A stretch of DNA of 64,000 bases, taken from positions 90,571-154,570 of the forward strand of contig CAVYJE010000028.1 in the NCBI GenBank assembly GCA_963768705.1, given 5' to 3'. Positions within the stretch are counted from its first letter, which is position 1. Each line of letters starts with the position of its first letter. The notes beneath the pieces are model-generated. The model was not told the DNA's origin, did no database searches, and was given only the letters and a program-made list of their open reading frames with translations. This stretch comes from an uncultured Chloroflexia bacterium. GTDB lineage: Bacteria > Chloroflexota > Dehalococcoidia > DSTF01 > WHTK01. The translations under genes were made by a program, and so were the position numbers. This document shows positions 11,549 through 25,483 of this stretch, piece by piece.

Positions 11549-11908
11549 ATGGCGCAGCGACGTGGCCCCGGCCTTCTGGCAGGACTGATCTCGGTGGTAG
11601 CGGCGGGTGGCCTTGTCGCCTGCGGGGGCGGCGACAAGCTCCCTGATATCGTACCGACCGCCACGACAGCCGCCACTGCCGTGACTCAGCCTACGCAGGC
11701 TCCAGCAACCGCCACGACAGCGCCTGTTGTGACGCCGACCCAGGAGGTCGGTGGACAGCAGGAGTACACGGTGCAGGCCGGTGACAGCCTCGGCGCTATT
11801 GCAGCCCAGTTCGGCGTCACCGTCGATGCCATCGTGCAGGCCAATAGCATCACGGACCCCAACCTCATCTTGCCGGGCGAGACCTTGATTATCCCGGCCG
11901 CACAGTAG
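11549..11908 (+). CDS. LysM-domain lipoprotein
   Basis: Lipobox LVAC-GGG; Thr/Ala/Pro-rich linker; C-terminal LysM (YTVQAGDSLGAIAAQFGVTVDAIVQANSITDPNLILPGETLIIP). Confidence 0.7.
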   Translation: MAQRRGPGLLAGLISVVAAGGLVACGGGDKLPDIVPTATTAATAVTQPTQAPATATTAPVVTPTQEVGGQQEYTVQAGDSLGAIAAQFGVTVDAIVQANSITDPNLILPGETLIIPAAQ

Positions 11909-13648: not shown

Positions 13649-13736
13649 GGAGGGGTGGCAGAGCGGTTTAATGCGGCGGTCTTGAAAACCGCTGTGGGGC
13701 AACTCACCGGGGGTTCGAATCCCTCCCCCTCCGCCA
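13649..13736 (+). tRNA. tRNA-Ser (anticodon TGA)
   Basis: 88 nt. Acceptor stem GGAGGGG/CCCCTCC; anticodon loop CU-UGA-AA; long variable arm; T-loop GGTTCGAATCC; encoded CCA end. Confidence 0.85.
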
Positions 13737-14054: not shown

Positions 14055-14708
14055 ATGAGTCGAAGCATTTTGTTAAGCATCATGTTCATCGCGGGTACGC
14101 TGGGCGTCATCGCCTTCAGTGCCGCCCAGTTCACGGACTTCGAGACCGATACGTCCGATCCCATTGACGCTGGAACTCTCAATTTGGAAATCGCCAACGT
14201 AACAACCTGCACTGTAGATGCCGACGGCCTTGAGGGTGATCCGGGCGAGGCTGACGGCGACACGCAGGCCACTTGTGACTTCAGTGTCCAGCACACAGGC
14301 TCGCTCAACAACGCGGACCTCTACCTCAAGATCGACGACGTCACGGCTTTCGCGTGTACGGACGCAGCCAACGGCGGCCGGGACGACGACTCTGACTATT
14401 GCGACGGTGGCGCCGATCTAACCTCGGACGAGTTCGATCTGATCAGCCTCGTAATCACGGCTGGTGGTGGCGAGGACTACACGCCGCTTACGCAGGATAC
14501 GTTGACTAACTACATCGACCAATGTGGCCTGATCGACAGCGATGTCGATAGCGGGGACACGGTTGAGGGAACCTATACGGTTGAGCTCTTTCAGGATCGC
14601 ACGACCAATGTGATGCAGGGTGACGCGATCAAGCTCGTCCTTAGCTTCGAGTTGGCCGAGGATCAAGCGACCACGGGCGCCGGTTTTGCTGACTGCGTCG
14701 AAGACTAG
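14055..14708 (+). CDS. TasA/CalY/camelysin-like secreted protein with SipW-cognate signal peptide
   Basis: ATG with GAGGAGGG RBS; N-terminal TM signal then AAQFTDFETDTSD..GTLNLEI (TasA: AAFND..GTLDLSA); C-terminal ..GDAIKLVLSFELAEDQ (TasA ..NSIKLQFSFEATQ); acidic; locally low GC. Confidence 0.7.
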   Translation: MSRSILLSIMFIAGTLGVIAFSAAQFTDFETDTSDPIDAGTLNLEIANVTTCTVDADGLEGDPGEADGDTQATCDFSVQHTGSLNNADLYLKIDDVTAFACTDAANGGRDDDSDYCDGGADLTSDEFDLISLVITAGGGEDYTPLTQDTLTNYIDQCGLIDSDVDSGDTVEGTYTVELFQDRTTNVMQGDAIKLVLSFELAEDQATTGAGFADCVED

Positions 14709-14724
14709 GGCTCGCTGTTGATGT

Positions 14725-15321
14725 TTGACTTCTGAGGCTAGCTTCGTGATTGCTGACGGCTATCGATTATTGAGTCCCCATTTGCGGGGACCAGGGTGGT
14801 GGTTGCCTCGCCTTGCGCGTGGCGGTATGGCGCTGGTCGCCCTCTTGCTGGGCTTTGCCGCGCTGTTTGCCCTGATCGGTCCGCAATTCGGTTACAGCTA
14901 TGCGGTGGTCAAGAGCGGCTCAATGGCGCCGGCCTACGGTGTAGGGGCCGTCATCGTGGTCGACGAGGTCAATCCGTCCTCGGTGCAGGTCGGAGACGTG
15001 GTCAGCTTCCGTCTCCCCGAGAGGCCGAGTGACGAGATCGTGACGCACCGGGTCGTCGAGGTGCTTAGCGAGGACGGAGCACTGCAATTTCGGACCAAGG
15101 GCGACGCGAACGAGGAGCCCGACCCTCGCCTCATCGAGGCTAGTCAGGTGAAGGGGCGCATCGTATTCGGTGTGCCCTGGATTGGACGTCTCGCGCCGAC
15201 GCTTCAAGCCAAGGGTCTGTTCTTCCTGGTTGTCCTCGCTTGTGGCGGACTGCTCATCGCTGGTGAGTTGGCCAACATCTTTCGGGAGCTACGTGGTCCG
15301 AGGGAGCGGCCTCTTGGGTAA
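14725..15321 (+). CDS. sipW: signal peptidase I, archaeal/ER (SipW) type
   Basis: ..AVVKSGSMAPAYGVGAVIVV.. (catalytic Ser), ..VTHRVVEV.. (His), KGDANEEPD, C-terminal TM anchor. The track start is a TTG; the GTG at 14746 or the ATG at 14824 may be the true start. Confidence 0.8.
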   Translation: MTSEASFVIADGYRLLSPHLRGPGWWLPRLARGGMALVALLLGFAALFALIGPQFGYSYAVVKSGSMAPAYGVGAVIVVDEVNPSSVQVGDVVSFRLPERPSDEIVTHRVVEVLSEDGALQFRTKGDANEEPDPRLIEASQVKGRIVFGVPWIGRLAPTLQAKGLFFLVVLACGGLLIAGELANIFRELRGPRERPLG

Positions 15322-15330
15322 CGGAGTGTG

Positions 15331-16428
15331 ATGAAGAAGACTGCGGTGCAAGGGCAAGGAGCGTGGCGGCGATTGGGCCGTCCGGTGATTCTTTGCGCCC
15401 TGGTGGCAAGTCTTCTCCTTTGGCTCGCGTCAGGACATGTGCCCTATACGAGCGGTCAATTTGCTGATTACGAAACCGATACCAGCGATGCGCTCTGGAT
15501 GAGTACCCATCCGGCCGACATCAAAATCGTCGTGAGTGCTGACGCCCCAGGCTTCATCGAGTTCACCAGCGACATTCCCGGATGCCCGTCCTCCTTCAGC
15601 TTTACTTTCGCAGAGGCAGGGTCGCAATCGTGGTTGTGCAACCCGGTCCCGGCAGGAACATACGAGGTCACTGAGACCACGCTTGGCTGGGACATCACAA
15701 TCAGCTGCATCGAGTCTGACACCGAGAACAGCGATGACGATAACCCCCCTTCAGCGACGATCGTCCTTGAGGAATACGAGAAGGTCATGTGTACCTTCAC
15801 GAACGAAATCGTCGACACCGGCAGCCTTGCCGTCGATCTCGACTACTCTGACGACTCCGTGATCGGGCTCGACGTAAACGTCGCATGTGATAGTGGTGCT
15901 TCGCCGGACACCAATGGCATGACCGCCTACGAAGGCACACCTGCTGAGTTCCAAATCAACGACCTGCCGCCCGGTGGTACATCCTGCGACGCGGAACTCG
16001 ACAGTCCGCCCGCAGACTATGCCGTGGACGACTCGGACTGCGCAGGTGTTTCACTAACGCCGGTTTTCCCGGATGCCGTTTGCACCATCGTCCTGACCAA
16101 GCTGGGTTCGATTACGTTCCTTCAAGACTCACCATCTGGCGAAGAATCGACCGACGTTACATTCGAGTTCTCGTCCAACCTTTCTGATTGTGAGCCGGGA
16201 CAGTTCCTGTTGGCGGAAGACGATGGCAGCGAGACCTGTAGTGGTCTTGTCGAGGACACGTACACCGTTACGCAGATACCGGGGGACTTGCCGTCTGGCT
16301 GGATTCTCTCCGACATCGACTGCAGTGCAGTGGATTCTGAGAACGATCTGGTTGCCGGAACTGTCACGATTGACCTGCAGCCTGGCGAGGACGTGACCTG
16401 CGTGTTCGTCAACGAGGTGCCTTCGTGA
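15331..16428 (+). CDS. secreted Cys-rich protein with SipW-cognate signal peptide and three tandem ~100-aa beta-sandwich (prealbumin/SpaA-like) repeats
   Basis: Signal peptide followed by SGQFADYETDTSD, the same motif as 14055. Three repeats each end in ..GTYxVTE..GW.I..I.C.. / ..G(E)(D)VTCxFxNE. Acidic. Starts at ATG 15331 (the track's 15328 is a GTG). Confidence 0.6.
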   Translation: MKKTAVQGQGAWRRLGRPVILCALVASLLLWLASGHVPYTSGQFADYETDTSDALWMSTHPADIKIVVSADAPGFIEFTSDIPGCPSSFSFTFAEAGSQSWLCNPVPAGTYEVTETTLGWDITISCIESDTENSDDDNPPSATIVLEEYEKVMCTFTNEIVDTGSLAVDLDYSDDSVIGLDVNVACDSGASPDTNGMTAYEGTPAEFQINDLPPGGTSCDAELDSPPADYAVDDSDCAGVSLTPVFPDAVCTIVLTKLGSITFLQDSPSGEESTDVTFEFSSNLSDCEPGQFLLAEDDGSETCSGLVEDTYTVTQIPGDLPSGWILSDIDCSAVDSENDLVAGTVTIDLQPGEDVTCVFVNEVPS

Positions 16429-18320
16429 GTCGCCTCGTCTCGCGCAACAATGTGCTTCGGCTGGTCCTGGTCCTCTTCGTGGCGTCGTTCATCACGGCCA
16501 TCTACGCGACTTCCTCCTCTCGTCTAGGTGGCCGGGTGCCCGTCGTCCTTGCGGAGGCGGGCGGCGTCGTGGACGTACAGATCGATGACGGCAGCGGTAG
16601 TCTCGTGTTCACGCCGGCCGAGTGTCAGACCCAGATCGCCTCGCTCTCGCAGTGCACGACAACGCTCGAGGTGGTAAACGCGGGCGGAACCGACAGCGCC
16701 GAGTTCGAGTACTCAATCGATGTCTGGGCTGATACGAACGGCGTCGACAACGGCGACATGGGCTACCACGACGACGATTTCAGTGCCTGCTACAACGTCA
16801 CGCTGGTCAAGGGTGGCACGCCCAACATGACCGCGACCAAGCCGCATGTTGGGCCGCTCTTCGGTGATTCGCTGCAGCTGGGCCAGTCGAAGGAGTGGAG
16901 CCTCGCGCTCGCCGTCAAGGGCGACAACAGCTGCCAGGGCGCGACCACAACCGTCATCGTCGCCGTGCTGGCGTCGGATGTCCCCGGCTTCTTCGATGAC
17001 ATCAAGCCGGTGCCGACGCTCGTGCCTTCGCCCAGTGTCGTGGCAGTAGCCGAGTCTCCAACGGTGACTGAAGAGACTCCAGGTCCGGCTTACGAAATCG
17101 AGGATGACGAACAGGCTCAGGCGCCAGTAGAGACCGTGACGGAGACCGCCACGCCAGAGCCGACATCGACCGCGACGCCGCGACCTGCCACCCCCACGCT
17201 GGTGCCCGCAACGGCGGTTGTGCCGGTTGCGACCGCGACGCCAAGCCCGACGCCTTCGCCGACGGCAGAGGTCAGCAAGAAGCCAGGCCGCGAAGATGGG
17301 CCGAACTTCCTGACCCAGGAGATCCCCAGTCCGAGCGCGATCTCCACCAACGTGAAGGTGGTTGCCACCAACTTCACGCTCTCGCTGCTTGCGCTGTGCG
17401 TGATCCTGGTGGCAACGACGGTATTCAACTCCACGCTGGAGGAGAACGCCATCGAAATCGGCGTCGTGATGAACCGCCTCACCGGCCCCACGACGAGAGT
17501 GGGCAAGGTCCTCGGCTGGATCGACCTGGACGACGAGGACGATGACAGGCCTGGCTGGCTGGCGTCTCTGCTGAAACCCCTGGGTATCGTGGCGATCACG
17601 GCCCTTATCTACACTGCTCTGGAGCCCGACTTCGGCTTCAATAATGAGACGCTGACCCTCACGGTGGCGCTGATGGCCGGCATCGCCATGAGTACCTTCC
17701 TGTACGAAGGCGGCCAGGTCTTCTGGTCGTCGAAGCGATATCGCACGCCGGCGGCCATGCGCGTCTACCCGATGGCGATCGTGATCGCGGTGGTTTCGGT
17801 GCTCATGACGAAGTTCGTGAGCCTGCACCCCGGCGTGATCTTTGGCTTCGTCACCGCCGCAACGATCTTCCCGCGAGGCGCCATGTCGCCCAAGGAGAAG
17901 GGGATGATCGTGCTGGTGCCCCTTGTCGGCCTGCTCGCGACCTCGATCATCGCCTTCCTGCTCATCGAACCGTTGCGCGCGTACTCGGTCGAACACCCCG
18001 GCGTGTGGAACGCCCTGCCGGAGACGGTCGCCATCGCCCTCTTCGTCGGTGGTGCCCAGAGCGCTCTGCTGATCCTGATCCCCGTGACGTTCAACGACGG
18101 TGAGAAGATCTGGGAGTGGAACAAGCTGGTGTGGTTCGCCATCGCCCTGCCGGCGAGCTTCCTGTTCTTCCACGTGATGATCAATAGCGGTGGCGACTAC
18201 GGTGACATCGTGGACAACGGCAAGGCACTGACGTTGCTGATTACCGCGTTTACCTTCCTGGGGGTCGCGGGCCTGACCTGGCTATACTTCCGCATACGCT
18301 TTGGACCCGGTGAAAACTGA
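16425..18320 (+). CDS. polytopic membrane protein: N-terminal TM + TasA-like ectodomain + Pro/Thr-rich linker + ~10-TM C-terminal domain
   Basis: GTG start overlapping the upstream stop (GTGA) with a GAGGTG RBS. Ectodomain ..CTTTLEVVNAGGTDSAEFEYSIDVW.. resembles the TasA beta-sandwich. PT-rich ATPEPTSTATPRPATPTLVPATAVVP region. Ten predicted TM helices of unknown family. Confidence 0.55.
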   Translation: MSRLVSRNNVLRLVLVLFVASFITAIYATSSSRLGGRVPVVLAEAGGVVDVQIDDGSGSLVFTPAECQTQIASLSQCTTTLEVVNAGGTDSAEFEYSIDVWADTNGVDNGDMGYHDDDFSACYNVTLVKGGTPNMTATKPHVGPLFGDSLQLGQSKEWSLALAVKGDNSCQGATTTVIVAVLASDVPGFFDDIKPVPTLVPSPSVVAVAESPTVTEETPGPAYEIEDDEQAQAPVETVTETATPEPTSTATPRPATPTLVPATAVVPVATATPSPTPSPTAEVSKKPGREDGPNFLTQEIPSPSAISTNVKVVATNFTLSLLALCVILVATTVFNSTLEENAIEIGVVMNRLTGPTTRVGKVLGWIDLDDEDDDRPGWLASLLKPLGIVAITALIYTALEPDFGFNNETLTLTVALMAGIAMSTFLYEGGQVFWSSKRYRTPAAMRVYPMAIVIAVVSVLMTKFVSLHPGVIFGFVTAATIFPRGAMSPKEKGMIVLVPLVGLLATSIIAFLLIEPLRAYSVEHPGVWNALPETVAIALFVGGAQSALLILIPVTFNDGEKIWEWNKLVWFAIALPASFLFFHVMINSGGDYGDIVDNGKALTLLITAFTFLGVAGLTWLYFRIRFGPGEN

Positions 18321-18330
18321 CCCTAACGAA

Positions 18331-18696
18331 ATGCCGCTGGACCGCCTGCGAAGGCTGTGTATGGCGCTGCCCGAAGTAACGGAGCGCCTCTCCCACAGTG
18401 AGCCGACCTGGTTTGTGCGGGACAAGAAGACCTTCGTCATGTTCGCGGACCATCATCATGACGACAGGCTGGCTTTCTGGTGTGCAGCGCCGGAGGGCGC
18501 CCAGACGTCACTAGTGGCGGCATACCCAGACCGATTCTTCCGGCCGCCCTACGTAGGCGTACGTGGATGGCTCGGCGTCTACCTCGATGTCCCCGTGGAC
18601 TGGGACGAGGTTGCCGTCATCGTGGAGGACGCTTATCGCGTGGTGGCGCCGAAGAAGCTCGTGGCGTTGTTGGGATCGCCTGGCACGGAAGGCTGA
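18331..18696 (+). CDS. MmcQ/YjbR-family protein
   Basis: MPLDRLRRLCMALPEVTERLSHSEPTWFVRDKKTFVMFADHHHDDRLAFWCAAPEG..; the internal ATG is chosen to avoid overlap with the upstream gene. Confidence 0.55.
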   Translation: MPLDRLRRLCMALPEVTERLSHSEPTWFVRDKKTFVMFADHHHDDRLAFWCAAPEGAQTSLVAAYPDRFFRPPYVGVRGWLGVYLDVPVDWDEVAVIVEDAYRVVAPKKLVALLGSPGTEG

Positions 18697-18749
18697 CGAC
18701 AGCCCGTCCGGTCTGTCAGGATCTTGCGTCCAGCCGGTAAGCTGGAGGC

Positions 18750-19190
18750 ATGCAAGAGCCCGGTTTCAGGTTCTACTCCTTCAGTTGGGGCACGCCCCAA
18801 GACCGCGGTCGCTTCGACCGCGAGCGCTGGCCGGCGCTGCTGGTGCGCTGGCTCATGCTGGCGTTTTCGGTGTGGGTCGCTGCGGAGGTCGTGGGCGGCA
18901 TCCATCTCGATGGCCTGGTGAGCATTCTCGCTGTCGCTGCCATCCTGGGCTTGCTCAACCTCTACCTGCGCCCTGTCCTGTTTGTGCTCTCATTGCCCTT
19001 CACGATCCTCACGCTGGGCTTCTTCGTGATCGTGATCAACGCGATCCTGCTGGGAATCACGGACTGGCTGGCCGACATCTTCGGTATCCACTTTGCCGTC
19101 GATAGCATCGGCGCGGCGCTGCTGGGCGCCCTCTTGATCAGCCTGGTGAACCTGATGCTGGCGGCCTTCCTGCGCCCAAGTAAGGTCTGA
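18750..19190 (+). CDS. phage-holin-4 (DUF360/YvlD) family membrane protein
   Basis: 4-TM; ..LNLYLRPVLFVLSLPFTILTLGFFVIVINAILLGITDWLA.. parallels YvlD (..LIRPLLLLLTLPITILTLGLFTFVINA..); GGAGG RBS. Confidence 0.7.
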   Translation: MQEPGFRFYSFSWGTPQDRGRFDRERWPALLVRWLMLAFSVWVAAEVVGGIHLDGLVSILAVAAILGLLNLYLRPVLFVLSLPFTILTLGFFVIVINAILLGITDWLADIFGIHFAVDSIGAALLGALLISLVNLMLAAFLRPSKV

Positions 19191-19353: not shown

Positions 19354-20058
19354 ATGCTATTGCAAGCGCTGCTCGGTGCCGAGGATTCATATGTAGTGAG
19401 AAGGCTTCATACTCGTCCTACGGCGGTCGCGGCCGGCATTGTCGTGCTGCTGTTTGGGATTGTGTGGACGCTGTCTGCCACGGACCTCACCTTCATAGGC
19501 TCCTTCATGGCAGCCATCGTTGTAGCCGCTGCGGTGGGTGCAGGGATTTACCTGTTCAAGTCGAGTACGGAGCCGGGCGAACATGGCAATCGCCTGCTGG
19601 AGCTCATGCAGCGCTCCAGCGATGCCCGACGTGGCATTCGCGACGATACGACCGGCCTGCTCAATCGCTGGTACCTGGAGCGCCGTCTTGACGAAGAGGC
19701 GGCACGCTGCGTGCGTTACGGGCACTCCATGGCGGTCATCGTCCTCAAGGCCGTCGCCCTCGATCTCGCACGATTCTCGCTCGATGGCTGGCAGCAAGAG
19801 TCGGCTGCAGCGGCGCAACGCTGTGCCCAGGTCATCCGGAACGTGGACCTCAGCGCTTCGCTGGCACCGTTCGAATTTGCGATGTGTTTGGTGCACTGCG
19901 ATCGCACCGGCGCAAACGCCGCGTTGGAACGCATCGTCACGGAGTTCCGGGACTACGACTGCAGCATCGGCATCGCCGTCTACCCCGAGGACGAGTGCGA
20001 GCCGCGAGCCCTGATTGAGCTCGCGCGTGTGCGCTCCCACGAGGTCGAAGCAGCTTAG
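19354..20058 (+). CDS. membrane protein with degenerate GGDEF domain (GGDEF replaced by APFEF)
   Basis: Two N-terminal TM helices; RDDTTGLLNRWYLERRLDEE..YGHSMAVIVLKAVALD (GGDEF-domain core) but the active-site motif reads LAPFEFAM. Confidence 0.55.
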   Translation: MLLQALLGAEDSYVVRRLHTRPTAVAAGIVVLLFGIVWTLSATDLTFIGSFMAAIVVAAAVGAGIYLFKSSTEPGEHGNRLLELMQRSSDARRGIRDDTTGLLNRWYLERRLDEEAARCVRYGHSMAVIVLKAVALDLARFSLDGWQQESAAAAQRCAQVIRNVDLSASLAPFEFAMCLVHCDRTGANAALERIVTEFRDYDCSIGIAVYPEDECEPRALIELARVRSHEVEAA

Positions 20059-20846: not shown

Positions 20847-20922
20847 GTTTTCAGTATCAGTTCAGAGTGTCAGCGTGCGAGGCCGGTACTCGAAGAACTG
20901 AAAAAACTGACTACTGACTACT
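20847..20922. repeat. inverted array of heptamer repeats (TTTTCAG/TATCAG/TAGTCAG family)
   Basis: ggttttcagtatcagttcagagtgtcag ... gaactgaaaaaactgactactgactac; the right half is the reverse complement of units of the left half. Confidence 0.45.
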
Positions 20923-22508
20923 AGATCTTCGCTGTGCGCACCGAGAAGATGTCCGGGATCGCCTCGATCTCTTCCTGGGTCTGCGTGTCGATTTCGGCGT
21001 CGAGGCCGAGGACCATGAGGGCGTGGCTGCCCTGTGTCTGGCGTCCGACGCGCATGAAGCTGATGTTGATGTCCTTGGTGCCGAGGAAGTTGCCGATGCG
21101 TCCGATCATGCCGGGCCGGTCCACGTTCTCGCAGAACAGCAGGTGGCCCTCGCCGGCGCGAGACGTCCACCCAGAAGTCGTTGATCTCGACGATGTGGGG
21201 GCCATCCTGGGCCACCGTGGCGGATACGGTCGTTTCGCCCGTGCTGGTCTTGAGGCGGACGCGGATCAGGTCCTTGTAGATGCTGTCGTGCTGGCCCTTG
21301 CTCTCGCGGATCGCATGCCGCGCTGCTCCGCGATCAGGCTGGCGTTGACCAGCGTCACGTTCTCTTCGCTGACGGGCGAGAGCAGGCCCCGGATCACGGC
21401 CGACTTCAGCGGGCTCGTGTCGTGGTTCGACCAGCTCGCCCACGTACTCGATCTCGACGCTCTCGAGCTGGCCGGACGAGAGCTGGGTCGCCAGTGAGCC
21501 GGCCTTGCGTCGCGGCCTGCAGGTAACGGTGCGATGAACTTGAAGGCCTCGGCGGCGATGAACGGCGCGTTGACGGCGTAAGCAGCCGGCTCAGCCGCAG
21601 CAGGGCCGTGATCAGCTGCTCCGCCACGTCCACGGAGAGGCGCTCCTGCGCCTCGGCGGCCGACGCGCCGAGGTGCGGCGTTACGACCACGTTTGGGTGA
21701 TGCACCAGCTGCGAGTCCGGGGCTGGCGGCTCCTTTTCGAACACGTCGATGGCGGCGCCGGCGACCTTGCCGCTGTCGAGGGCGCGTACCAGCGCGTCTT
21801 CGGAGATCAGCTCGCCGCGCGCGACGTTGATGACCCGCACGCCGTGCTTCATCTGCGCGAACTGGCTCGTCGTCCAGGAAGTGGTGGTTTTGCGGCGTGA
21901 GGGGCAGGTGCAGGGTGATGAAGTCGCTCTCGCGCAGCAGCTCATCCAGGGTGACGAGGCTGACGCCGATGGACTGGAAGCGCTCCGGCATAACGAAGGG
22001 GTCGTAGCCGATGACGCGCATCTCGAAGGCGCGGGCGCGACGGGCCACCTCGGCGCCGATGCGGCCGAGGCCGACGACGCCGAGCGTCTTGCCGCGCAGC
22101 TCGACGCCGACGAACTTCGAGCGTTCCCACTTGTCCGGCGGTCAGCGAGGCGTGCGCCTCGGGATGTGGCGGGCCAGCGCCAGCATCATGCCGAGGGTGT
22201 GCTCCGCCGTTGCGATCGTGATGCGCTGCCGGGGCGTTGACCACGACGATGCCGCGCTCGGTGGCGGCGTCGACGTTGATGTTGTCGACGCCGACGCCGG
22301 CGCGGCCGACGACGACGAGGTTCTTGGCCGCTTTGAGCACTTCAGCGGTGACTTTGGTCTCGCTGCGCACCGCCAGGGCTTCGTAGTTAGGGATGACGTC
22401 GAGTAGCTCTTCGGGCGTCATGCCGAGCATAACGTCCACTTCGAGCTTGTCTCGCAGGATCGCGAGACCCTCTTCGCCGATGCGATCGGTTACCAGTACA
22501 CGTGGCAT
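20921..22508 (-). pseudogene. serA: D-3-phosphoglycerate dehydrogenase SerA, interrupted by at least 4 frameshifts
   Basis: Collinear SerA segments across minus frames: MPRVLVTDRIGEEGLAILR..VGRAGVGVDNINVDAATERGIVVVNAP ; ..RVIGYDPFVMPERFQSIGVSLVTLDELLRESDFITLHLPLTP ; ..FAQMKHGVRVINVARGELISEDALVRALDSGKVAGAAIDVFEKEP..VVVTPHLGASAAEAQERLSVDVAEQ ; C-terminal ACT domain ..MIGRIGNFLGTKDINISFMRVGR.. Confidence 0.75.
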
Positions 22509-22521
22509 CGGAGGCCGCGGC

Positions 22522-23626
22522 TCAGCTAACGGCAGCCGGCTTTTTGTAGCCGAGCTGCTCGAGGACGGTCGCAAGCGCTTCGATGGCGGCGTCGATGTCC
22601 TTCGTGTCGACGATGCCCATGTGTCCGATGCGGAAGATCTTTCCGGCGAGCTTTCCCTGTCCGGCCGCCAGCACGGTGTCGTACTCCTTGTTGAGGATGC
22701 TCAGCAGCTGCTTCGGCGTCGACGCCCTCGGGCACGACAACGCTCGTGACGGTGTCGGAGGCCTGCGGGCCTTCGGCGAGGAGCTTGAGGCCCAGGGCCT
22801 TGATGCGGTTGCGCGTGTAGTCGGCGACGGCGTGGTGACGGGCGTTGGTCTGCTCGAGGCCCTCCTGGTACATCATGTCCAGCGCGAGGTCGAGGCCGTA
22901 GTAGAGGGAGACGGCGGGCGTGAACGGCGTCTGGCCGATCTCGGCGTACTTCTTAGCCTTGCCGATGTCCATGTAGTACTTGCGCATGTCGGAGCGCTCG
23001 TAAGCGGCCCAGGCGCGCGGGCTCATCGTGATGAAGCCGAGGCCCGGCGGGATCATGAAGCCCTTCTGCGAGGCCGTCGTCGCGACGTCGACGCCCCAGG
23101 CGTCGGTCGCGAAGGGCAGGCAGCCCAGGGAGCTGATGGCGTCGACGATGAGGAGGACCTCCGGGTTGACGGCCTTGACCGCCTTGCTGATCGCAGAGAT
23201 GTCGTTTGTGACACCGGTGGAGGTTTCGTTGTGGGTGACGATGACGGCCTTGGTGTCGGGCTCCACGTTCTCGGCGACGACCTTGGCGTCCGCCTGGGTG
23301 CCGGGCTCGAAGTCGAGCCGCTTGACGTTGGCGCCGAAAGTCTCAGCGATATCAGCGAAGCGGGCGCCGAACTCACCGATCGAGACGGCGAGCACCTTGT
23401 CGCCCTCGGACAGCGTGTTGACGACGGCGGCTTCCATGACGCCGGTGCCGGAGGTGGTGTAGACGTAGACCTCGTTCTCGGTGCGGAAGAAGAGCTTGAG
23501 GCGCTCCATGATCCGTCCCTGCATCTCGGCGAACTCGGGTCCGCGGTGATTGATCATCTGTCGCGAGAGCTCATTGAGCGTCTCGGGCGGGCACGGTGTT
23601 GGGCCAGGGATGCGAAGGTTCTGCAC
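22522..23626 (-). pseudogene. serC: class-V aminotransferase (AGXT / archaeal-type phosphoserine aminotransferase SerC-like), one frameshift near 22740
   Basis: GTG start; ..PGPTPCPPETLNEL..HRGPEFAEMQ..TTSGTGVMEAAVVN..SQKGFMIPPGLGFI..; the C-terminus ..KQLLSILNKEYDTVLAAGQGKLAGKIFRIGHMG.. continues in another frame (22522-22740); adjacent to serA. Confidence 0.7.
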
Positions 23627-23827: not shown

Positions 23828-25483
23828 ATGCCAGAAACCATCCTTATCGGCGTTGCGTGGCCTTATCCCAACGGGTCCTTGCACCTGGGACAGATCGCCG
23901 GCGCCTACCTTCCCGCCGATATCTTTGCCCGCTACCAGCGCAGTCGCCGGCAACCGTGTCGCCATGGTGTCCGGCTCGGACCAGCACGGCACGCCGATCG
24001 CCGATCCGGGCGGAGCAGGAGGGCACGACCCGCAGGAAGTCGTCGACGCACTACCACACCGAGTACCTGCGACTGCTGGGAGCGCCTCGGCATCACCTTT
24101 GACCTCTACACCACGACGGGCACCCAGAACCACATCGAGACGGCGCAGGAGATCTTCCTCAAGCTCTACGAGCAGGGCGACCTCTACCTCGAAGACCATG
24201 GAGCAGACCTACTGTGTCCAGGAGGGGCGCTTCCTGCCCGACCGCTACGTCGAGGGCACCTGCCCGCACTGCGGCTATCGAGGGCGCCCGCGGCGACCAG
24301 TGCGACAACTGCGGTCGCACCCTGGACCCGGTCGACCTGATCAACCCGCGCTGCCGTCTCGACGGCTCCGACGCCGGAGCGCGCGAGCCTCGAGCACTTC
24401 TTCCTGCGCCTCAGCGCCTACAACGAGCAGCTGAAGCAGTGGCTGAGCACCGGTAAGGAGCACTGGCGGCGCCAGTGCTCGGCTTCGCGCTGGGCGTGCT
24501 CGCAGAGGGTCTGAACGACCGCGCGATCACGCGCGACCTCGAGTGGGGCGTGCCGATCCCGCTGGAGGGCTACGACACCAAGCGCATCTACGTCTGGTTC
24601 GAGAACGTCATCGGCTACCTCTCCGCGGCCAAGGAGTGGGCGCAGAAGCAGGGCACGCCCGAAGCCTGGCGCGACTTCTGGGAGGACCCGAGCGCGAAGG
24701 TCGTACTACTTCATCGGCAAGGACAACATCTGGTTCCACACGCTGAGCTGGCCGGCCGCAGGTGCATGATGTACGGCGGCCTCAACCTGCCCTACGACGT
24801 GCCGGCCAACCAGTACGTCAACTTCGGCGGCTGGAAGGCGAGCACGAGCCGCGGCACGGCGCCGTTCCTGCCGACTTACCTCGAGCGGTACGACCCCGAC
24901 ACGCTGCGCTACTACCTCGCCGCGATCATGCCGGAGACTAGCCGACAGCGAGTTCAGCGACGACGACCTGGTGCGCCGCAACAACGATGAGCTCGTCTCG
25001 ACCTGGGGCAACCTCGTCAACCGGGTGCTGACGATCACGTATCGCAACTTCGACGAGAAGGTGCCGGAGCCGGGCGATCTGCAGCCGGGCGACGAAGAGC
25101 TTCTGAAGCAGGGCGAGGAGGCGCTCGCGGCCGTGGGCAAGAGCATCTCCGAGTGCAAGTTCCGCGAGGGTCTGCGCGGCGCGATGGGCTATGCCCAGGA
25201 GGTCAACCGTTACCTCAACCAGGAGGAGCCCTGGAAGACGCGCGAGACCGACAAGCCCGCCGCGGCGCGCTCGCTCTACACGGCGCTCTGCGCCATCGAG
25301 GCGCTGAAGCTGGCGTTCTATCCCTACCTGCCGTTCACGTCGCAGCGCCTGCACGAGATGCTCGGCCACAACGACGCTATCGATGCGCAGGGCTGGAGCA
25401 CGAGTCGGCTCGTGCCGGGCACGTCGCTGCAGGAGCCGAAGCCGCTGTTCAAGAAGCTCGATATGCCGGAGCCGGTATCGTGA
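23828..25483 (+). pseudogene. metG: methionine--tRNA ligase MetG, interrupted by at least 5 frameshifts
   Basis: Segments in all three plus frames: [34 protein letters not shown] ; [27 protein letters not shown] ; [21 protein letters not shown] ; GVLAEGLNDRAITRDLEWGVPIPLEGYDTKRIYVWFENVIGY ; (K)MSKS region; C-terminal anticodon-binding part 24971-25483. Confidence 0.8.

Follow-up and report, generated by a model that had tools for sequence, protein, structure and literature searches.

The window analysed here is a stretch of 64,000 nucleotides (nt) from contig CAVYJE010000028.1 (positions 90,571 to 154,570; assembly GCA_963768705.1), part of the metagenome-assembled genome (MAG) of an uncultured Chloroflexia bacterium of the phylum Chloroflexota. 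Between positions 14055 and 18320 it contains a cassette of four genes, the last of which (gene 4) encodes a 631-amino-acid (aa) protein with a TasA-like extracytoplasmic domain (ectodomain), a disordered stalk and a polytopic membrane domain. An earlier note, made from the sequence alone, had proposed this protein as a candidate membrane anchor or assembly platform for fibres made of the two upstream subunits. The features of the cassette, with the evidence for each in brackets, are the following (ORF, open reading frame; HMM, hidden Markov model; pLDDT, predicted local distance difference test).

14055-14708, plus strand: gene 1, predicted secreted TasA-like subunit of 217 aa with a SipW-dependent-type signal, …FSAAQFTDFETDTSD… (ORF; family matches)
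14725-15321, plus strand: gene 2, SipW-type (archaeal-type) signal peptidase I of 198 aa (TIGR02228)
15328-16428, plus strand: gene 3, second predicted SipW substrate, 366 aa, with SpaA-like prealbumin-fold domains (PF24514 SpaA_4, E 1.6e-13)
16425-16428, plus strand: GTGA overlap of the gene 3 stop codon (TGA) with the gene 4 start codon (GTG) (sequence read)
16425-18320, plus strand: gene 4, membrane-anchored TasA-like protein of 631 aa (ORF list, homologues, AlphaFold2)
16425-16511, plus strand: residues 1-29 of gene 4, with the N-terminal hydrophobic segment, 10-28 (hydropathy; alignment with subunits)
16557-16994, plus strand: TasA-like beta-sandwich ectodomain, residues ~45-190 (AlphaFold2 strands; hhalign; subunit HMM; joint alignment)
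17010-17300, plus strand: disordered stalk rich in Pro, Thr, Ala and Val, residues 196-292 (composition; pLDDT <50)
17322-18272, plus strand: cola_mem domain with nine crossings, residues 300-616 (NCBIfam NF041501; topology; family conservation)
17829-17849, plus strand: P-G-V-I-F-G-F, residues 469-475, the family's P-G-x3-G signature in a predicted non-helical crossing (conservation; DSSP of the model)

Gene 4 begins with a GTG codon preceded by GAGG 8 nt upstream, and the overlap of this codon with the stop of gene 3 amounts to translational coupling, as the earlier note had read it. The start is supported by co-linear homologues that begin with MSGLVSR or similar sequences, and the gene is taken to be intact because these homologues start at the same position and run co-linearly to its end. 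Hydropathy analysis confirmed the N-terminal transmembrane segment of the earlier note (residues 10-28), which would function as either a signal peptide or a signal anchor, and detected nine further hydrophobic segments between residues 312 and 620. The predicted topology is N-out/C-in and satisfies the positive-inside rule, with all Lys/Arg-rich loops, as well as the C-terminal YFRIRF tail, placed inside. The structure models are of medium confidence. The AlphaFold2 model of the full protein (25-sequence alignment; mean pLDDT 70.9) has a beta-sandwich at residues ~57-184 (pLDDT ~70-85) and a helical membrane domain at residues ~300-625 (pLDDT 80-95), and a dedicated ectodomain-only model (five-sequence alignment) has a pLDDT of 69.8. 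The Pro/Thr/Ala linker described earlier was likewise recovered as a stalk with the composition P 19%, T 18%, A 12% and V 12% and pLDDT below 50. The earlier count of about ten C-terminal helices proved close but not exact: hydropathy and the AlphaFold2 model together give eight transmembrane helices plus one extended membrane-crossing segment and, thus, nine crossings.

The TasA-like character of the ectodomain, which had been guessed from strand signatures, has been borne out by profile comparison, the link to TasA itself being transitive. In the decisive hhalign comparison (six ectodomains vs. 15 subunits), the ectodomain family matched the local family of SipW-dependent subunits with a probability of 96.5% (E 7.7e-10) over 142 columns, i.e., the whole domain, vs. 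0.1-0.2% for one reversed and eight column-shuffled controls; an earlier comparison of five-sequence alignments had been suggestive only (28.7%), and the result became decisive once both families were enlarged. The relation holds in both directions, the subunit HMM matching residues 47-184 of the gene 4 protein (E 2.3e-8) and the ectodomain HMM matching the free subunits P0034 (E 1.6e-11) and P0031 (E 1.4e-9; P and L numbers denote retrieved proteins and loci). The two upstream proteins gave no BLASTP match to the ectodomain. In a joint alignment of anchored and free proteins, three ectodomain cysteines (C77, C122 and C170) never vary and a fourth, C67, hardly does, and these four shared positions fit two extracytoplasmic disulfides. 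The string CTTTLEVVNAGGTDSAEFEYSIDVW, quoted in the earlier note, spans residues 77-101; in the alignment it falls on the strand C-T-T-x-x-T-V-x-x-x-G-S-L that SipW-type subunits conserve (CTTTLEVVNAG in the ectodomain vs. CTTIITVNYTG in P0034). The C-terminal motif of the ectodomain, D-N-S-C-Q-G-A-T-T-T-V, aligns with DACQDATTNI of a subunit, N-x-C-Q-G being shared by the ectodomain and the SipW-type subunits. On this profile and alignment evidence, the ectodomain is a paralog of the local, putative fibre subunits.

The connection of these subunits to TasA is provided by relatives of the gene 1 product, which a profile search gathered and which are named in their sources "SipW-dependent-type signal peptide-containing protein". 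TIGR04088 (SipW-dependent-type signal) is present in 14 of the 15 family members, PF12389 in 10 (best E 3.5e-13) and NF046066 (NCBIfam TasA) in seven. Against PDB sequences, the family profile matches the TasA fibre (8AUR, E 6.1e-5), the TasA crystal structure (5OF1, E 1.5e-4) and AbpX (9SJ2, E 0.01), and the conserved ending N-x-x-Q-G-x-x-I-x-L…A-T-Q is aligned in these structure matches; the C-terminal motif of the gene 1 product is N-V-M-Q-G-D-A-I-K-L. The gene 1 product itself has no direct Pfam or NCBIfam match, its sequence gave no relevant match among PDB sequences, and a five-sequence subunit profile gave none. Being homologous to a subunit family that matches TasA, the ectodomain would belong to the TasA superfamily. 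The remaining two genes complete the picture of a SipW-type operon. The gene 2 product matches TIGR02228 (E 3e-25; 89 bits vs. a cutoff of 51.85), NF046067 SipW (E 6.5e-23, below the cutoff of that model) and PF10502 (E 1.1e-6), and the gene 3 product has a signal, …TSGQFADYETDTSDA…, and an N-terminus, …GQFADYETDTSDA, of the same kind as those of the gene 1 product.

The N-termini of free and anchored proteins are related and differ in one respect. Free subunits carry …GA/TFSAFTD-x-E… (the slash marking the presumed cleavage site), a segment that forms the end of the SipW-type signal and, by analogy with TasA and AbpX, would be the donor strand with its aromatic clamp. At the position of this signal motif, the gene 4 protein reads IYATSSSRLGGR in the joint alignment and continues as …IYA/TSSSRLGGRVPVVLAE; its A…IYA/TSS aligns with …SGA/TFS of the subunit signal peptides and is not followed by F-[ST]-D-x-E. 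The 631-aa protein has no match to TIGR04088, and none at E <= 1 to the TapA model TIGR04087.

The membrane domain, which the earlier note could not place in any known family, can be assigned to NF041501 ("cola_mem", FGLLP motif-containing membrane protein; E 2.6e-51; 174.5 bits vs. a cutoff of 150), although this family is itself without an assigned function. Model positions 2-305 of 312 align with residues 300-616, and the helical domain runs on to ~625. The family signature in the gene 4 protein reads PGVIFGFV (i.e., FGFV, not FGLLP; among relatives YGFV and FGFV dominate and YGLL is rare). Its P469, G470 and G474 are invariant in the family, and the segment 466-481 is non-helical in the AlphaFold2 model, pairing as a short strand with residues 443-447. 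Further conserved residues are N316, F334-N335-x-T337, Y396, P401-x-F-G-x-N406, R463, the YEGGQ motif (G429 being kept family-wide), P553-x-x-F-x-D-G and W565/W570, many of them predicted to lie on the cytoplasmic face. The domain has no significant sequence or fold similarity to known transporter, enzyme or intramembrane protease families: the Pfam scan of the C-terminal domain returned no such family, the uncharacterised NF041501 being the one family matched, the domain profile had no relevant match among PDB sequences, Foldseek found no related fold in the PDB, and a comparison of the two halves of the domain detected no internal repeat. Pfam matches of the whole protein and of 18 C-terminal domains to DUF6114, DUF4271 and LPG_synthase_TM stayed below threshold and were put down to chance or composition. 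Nothing relevant came from a full-text literature search for "FGLLP", exact-sequence look-ups for P0001 and P0010 returned no record, and cluster look-ups returned no names. The earlier note had considered its proposal vulnerable to two outcomes, a C-terminal domain from a well-known transporter or enzyme family and an ectodomain lacking a TasA-like fold; what we found is a membrane domain with no such match and an ectodomain with a TasA-like relation by profile comparison.

An exhaustive profile search yielded 2,654 cola_mem cluster representatives at E <= 1e-3 (1,393 at E <= 1e-30). The domain is C-terminal in 148 of 160 full-length matches, where it follows an N-terminal extension with a median length of 272 aa, and the Pro/Thr/Ser fraction in the 70 residues preceding it has a median of 0.43 vs. 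0.15 within the domain. Its fusion partners include NHL and other beta-propellers, TSP_3, DUF11/CLIPPER, RCC1, PPC, LRR, C-type lectin and InlB B-repeats, and on the whole cola_mem resembles a C-terminal polytopic anchor of general use for surface domains. The other 12 proteins (P0078, P0085, P0089, P0091, P0104, P0116, P0129, P0132, P0158, P0169, P0175 and P0183) have 68 to 583 residues beyond the domain, presumably cytoplasmic in view of the C-in topology. Matches to double zinc ribbon, UPF0547 and SHOCT also occur in the family and, together with these extensions, hint at a cytoplasmic partner or output. The fusion of a TasA-like ectodomain with cola_mem in a SipW cassette was seen in seven of the retrieved cola_mem proteins (P0001, P0002, P0003, P0005, P0007, P0099 and the truncated P0026).

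Genomic context was sampled in about 20 loci retrieved from Chloroflexota MAGs (Chloroflexia and Dehalococcoidia), one Actinomycetes MAG and one Methyloligellaceae bin. The cassette comprised of a subunit, a SipW peptidase, a second SipW substrate and a TasA-like cola_mem protein recurs in five related loci.

L013 (P0002): cassette with the same gene order
L005 (P0003): cassette with the same gene order
L014 (P0007): cassette with the same order and a HemolysinCabind protein in the gene 3 position
L001/L004 (P0005): cassette, reordered
L015: fragmented cassette remnant only

Wherever the neighbourhood is readable, all cola_mem proteins with a TasA-like ectodomain lie in such cassettes; as gene 4 shares its operon with the signal peptidase I of gene 2, so its counterparts adjoin a SipW-type signal peptidase I in L001, L005, L013 and L014. 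The position homologous to gene 3 is present in the same four loci and is variable in content. In L014 (1936-2907) the SpaA_4 protein is replaced by an RTX-type protein with Ca-binding repeats that carries a SipW-like signal (…GGTYAAFQSS…), which makes the third position look like swappable cargo or tip. In L015 (7676-9886) the cassette is broken into ORFs of 88, 112, 53, 233 and 216 aa; P0026, a truncated anchored protein ending inside the proline/threonine-rich linker, and P0027, a frameshifted copy, are probably long-read indel artefacts.

Two further loci, L017 and L020, encode a protein with the same N-terminal hydrophobic segment, ectodomain and proline/threonine-rich linker, but with LPVTG followed by a hydrophobic stretch and a basic tail at its C-terminus (ectodomain HMM E 3.2e-15 in L020; 33% identity over 93 aa in L017); the cluster also includes SipW and a sortase. 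Since these copies end in an LPXTG signal, the same ectodomain module can be held by either sortase or cola_mem, and this natural swap argues for equivalence of the two devices in anchoring. An LPXTG signal with its hydrophobic stretch and basic tail is absent from every ORF of the window. The variant cassettes (L017 6001-12027; L020 2-2049 and 5739-6383) contain a TasA-like subunit, the LPXTG copy of the ectodomain, SipW, small proteins with SipW signals, a 583-aa SpaA_4 protein and the sortase.

Taken together, these observations make it fairly probable, in our view, that this Chloroflexota bacterium has a SipW-dependent system of TasA-like fibres, with the gene 4 protein as its cell-bound base subunit. 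We infer this from homology, from the operon structure and its conservation, from the LPXTG interchange, from the predicted topology, which puts the ectodomain outside, and from the anchor-like behaviour of the cola_mem family; the membrane anchor idea of the earlier note has thereby gained two independent comparative supports, the retention of the cassette with SipW in five related loci and the LPXTG swap in two. In the proposed mechanism, the protein would be exported by the Sec pathway via its N-terminal hydrophobic segment, which is probably cleaved as a signal peptide, because the LPXTG-anchored homologues must lose theirs. The ectodomain, stabilised by two disulfides, would then be extracellular and borne on a stalk of ~100 residues that, if extended, could reach up to ~30 nm (estimated at ~0.3 nm per residue), enough to cross the wall. 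It would join the fibre through beta-strand complementation, as TasA-superfamily subunits do, most likely as an acceptor-only terminal subunit, a role favoured by the missing F-[ST]-D-x-E segment after the SipW cleavage site. In this capacity it would accept a donor strand from the first partner processed by SipW, the gene 1 subunit or possibly the SpaA-domain protein of gene 3, and further subunits would then add distally, with cola_mem holding the assembly in the membrane, the role that sortase-mediated wall attachment would play in the LPXTG variants.

Several observations weigh against this reading. The ectodomain has no direct match in Pfam or NCBIfam, its profile found nothing relevant among PDB sequences, and its hhalign comparison with one TasA sequence, an insensitive approach, gave a probability of 0.8%. 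Foldseek searches of the PDB with the full and the ectodomain-only models returned no match at E <= 1e-3, TasA being absent among the 50 matches listed for these medium-confidence models (pLDDT ~70; 25 and 5 sequences). The matches obtained were weak ones to generic jelly-roll or Ig-like folds, with TMq <=0.40 in the ectodomain-only search and a target-normalised TM score of up to 0.52 in the case of one small domain. The failure to recover TasA is best attributed to the medium confidence of the models and to large insertions in TasA, and it is still discordant. The formation of fibres by the upstream subunits is itself suggested by family membership only, and the ectodomain is without the SipW-type signal and the donor-strand motif. 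About half of the cola_mem loci examined (e.g., L002, L003, L006, L007, L009-L012 and L019) are solitary and unlinked to SipW, from which it follows that the membrane domain is not specific to the SipW system. L017 and L020 also encode a CLIPPER-repeat cola_mem protein (P0011 and P0009 being the proteins of this kind), divergently from the cassette, a CLIPPER-cola_mem gene next to a cassette with an LPXTG anchor is likewise noted for L016, and the presence of a cola_mem gene beside an LPXTG-bearing cassette is unexplained by simple either/or anchoring. Finally, with its invariant residues (P, G, N, W and R) and its conserved cytoplasmic motifs, cola_mem exceeds the needs of a passive anchor.

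A solitary cola_mem paralog was also observed in a conserved gene order (trmD, rplS, cola_mem, polyketide-cyclase-like gene) in several Chloroflexia MAGs (L003 7080-8993; L019 7238-9140; the P0006 locus), the L019 copy being seemingly split into 201 aa and 379 aa.

Among the alternatives, the one that survives best is a TapA-like nucleator, in which the free N-terminal stretch …SRLGGRVPVVLAEAG… would serve after cleavage as the donor strand that starts polymerisation at the membrane, anchoring being a by-product. The alignment of the N-terminal hydrophobic segment with the cleavable signals of subunits and LPXTG homologues speaks for it, as do a short strand at RVPVVL in the AlphaFold2 model (low confidence) and the reported ability of TapA to start TasA filaments by strand complementation (PMC10151520). 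We nevertheless regard it as unlikely, because F-[ST]-D-x-E, the conserved subunit motif with its aromatic and acidic residues, is missing from this stretch, the pLDDT of the stretch is below 50, and TIGR04087 is not matched; this alternative is, moreover, compatible with the anchor model rather than exclusive of it.

The solitary loci, together with the many unrelated ectodomains that cola_mem carries and the missing donor-strand motif, would suit a stand-alone surface protein, with the TasA-like domain acting as a monomeric adhesin or cohesion receptor and the operon link reflecting shared regulation of surface proteins. This appears quite improbable given that every readable neighbourhood of this combination of ectodomain and cola_mem holds SipW and a free subunit, that gene 4 is translationally coupled to the cassette, and that the domain swaps with an LPXTG-anchored version in the same kind of cassette.

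The conservation pattern of cola_mem raises a different option, namely that the membrane domain is the functional core (an enzyme, a transporter or a signal/force transducer) and the ectodomain a specificity or sensor module, reporting, e.g., fibre load or matrix state. The (near-)invariant residues do cluster in the intramembrane PG-x3-G and on the cytoplasmic face (FN-x-T, YEGGQ, F-x-DG-x-K-x-W-x-W), long post-domain extensions and zinc-ribbon and SHOCT matches occur in the family, and a GGDEF-like membrane protein is encoded 1 kb downstream. Against this, the domain resembles no Pfam family and nothing in the PDB by sequence or fold, a transporter-type internal repeat and a recognisable catalytic motif are lacking, and the LPXTG swap shows that the ectodomain works without the membrane domain; we consider this option an outside chance. 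An intramembrane protease, an exosortase or a GT-C enzyme was considered for the membrane domain, and, as neither a catalytic motif nor any similarity was found, is kept as a minor rival.

Within the base-subunit reading, too, the conserved polar and cytoplasmic-face residues suggest that cola_mem does more than anchor. In a broader and rather speculative extension, to which we give limited credence, cola_mem would be a widespread and so far unrecognised nine-crossing C-terminal module that replaces sortase/LPXTG anchoring in monoderms, chiefly Chloroflexota in the retrieved loci, and that is not passive, serving as an assembly platform or as a transducer of fibre or ectodomain state.

The surroundings of the cassette in the window offer some additional context. 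Three genes follow gene 4 (18301-19190 and 19354-20058, plus strand): a YjbR-family gene, which overlaps the 3' end of gene 4 by 20 nt, a gene for a protein with four transmembrane segments of the PF04020 ("phage holin 4") family, and a gene whose small membrane-protein product contains part of a GGDEF domain (E 8.4e-9). Cyclic di-GMP enzymes have been reported alongside TasA-like loci (bioRxiv 10.64898/2026.01.04.697558). About 2 kb upstream (11549-11908, plus strand), a small secreted LysM-domain protein with a proline/threonine-rich linker (PF01476, E 1.5e-15) indicates that the organism has peptidoglycan. A tRNA-Ser gene (anticodon TGA; 13649-13736, plus strand) is located ~320 nt upstream of gene 1, the GC content dips to 0.59-0.62 over 14-20 kb vs. 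~0.65 around, and the two could mark an acquired island. Housekeeping genes at 20921-22574 (minus strand), 22526-23626 (minus strand) and 23828-25483 (plus strand), which from their translations only look like serA (phosphoglycerate dehydrogenase), an aminotransferase gene and metG (methionyl-tRNA synthetase), each appear to be split into several ORFs or to run into out-of-frame Arg-rich tails, which suggests assembly indel errors rather than pseudogenes; the cassette (14055-18320) is intact despite such apparently split genes elsewhere in the window.

Comparison with known systems delineates what is familiar and what is new in this arrangement. The closest archaeal counterpart is TafF, a protein with one or three transmembrane helices proposed as the membrane anchor of the haloarchaeal Tat-fimbriae (Tafi), a TasA-superfamily pilus (PMC12337348). 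Like the gene 4 protein, it joins a jelly-roll-like pilin-type domain to transmembrane helices; the pilus locus in which it is encoded has its own signal peptidase, and its proposed function is to keep a strand-complemented filament attached to the cell. In contrast to the gene 4 protein, TafF has one N-terminal or three C-terminal helices instead of a nine-crossing domain and no Pro/Thr stalk; it is archaeal, belongs to a partly Tat-dependent system and has a role that is itself a proposal. In bacteria, anchor proteins with LPXTG or S-layer homology (SLH) modules occur in AbpX/TasA-like loci, where AlphaFold3 predicts co-assembly by donor-strand complementation (bioRxiv 10.64898/2026.01.04.697558). 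These minor subunits share with the gene 4 protein a TasA-superfamily domain, an anchoring module and a locus with signal peptidase I and free subunits, and L017 and L020 supply direct LPXTG examples with the very ectodomain of gene 4. The difference lies in the attachment, which is to the wall, covalently or non-covalently, in the minor subunits and by the integral membrane domain NF041501 in the gene 4 protein. TapA and AbpB, proposed anchors or nucleators, have a fold unlike that of TasA (PMC9245690, PMC10151520). As an accessory protein of the SipW/TasA operon with an N-terminal export signal, TapA is credited with anchoring and starting TasA fibres; it differs, however, in being secreted as a soluble protein whose macroglobulin-like beta-sandwich is not the jelly-roll of TasA (PMC9245690), and in being a SipW substrate with no membrane domain, whereas the ectodomain of gene 4 is paralogous to the putative fibre subunit. 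The literature thus already contains the proposal that TasA-superfamily loci encode a jelly-roll protein bound to the cell, and the new elements are the nine-crossing NF041501 anchoring device and its swap with LPXTG.

Overall, the way in which TasA-type matrix fibres are tethered to the cell is unsettled, the role of TapA being debated and the archaeal anchors being proposals only. A fibre-subunit fold fused to a membrane domain in one set of loci, and to LPXTG in sister loci, constitutes a "Rosetta-stone" arrangement that names a concrete, testable candidate for the base subunit of such fibres and provides the first functional context for NF041501, a family of about 2,650 sequence clusters.

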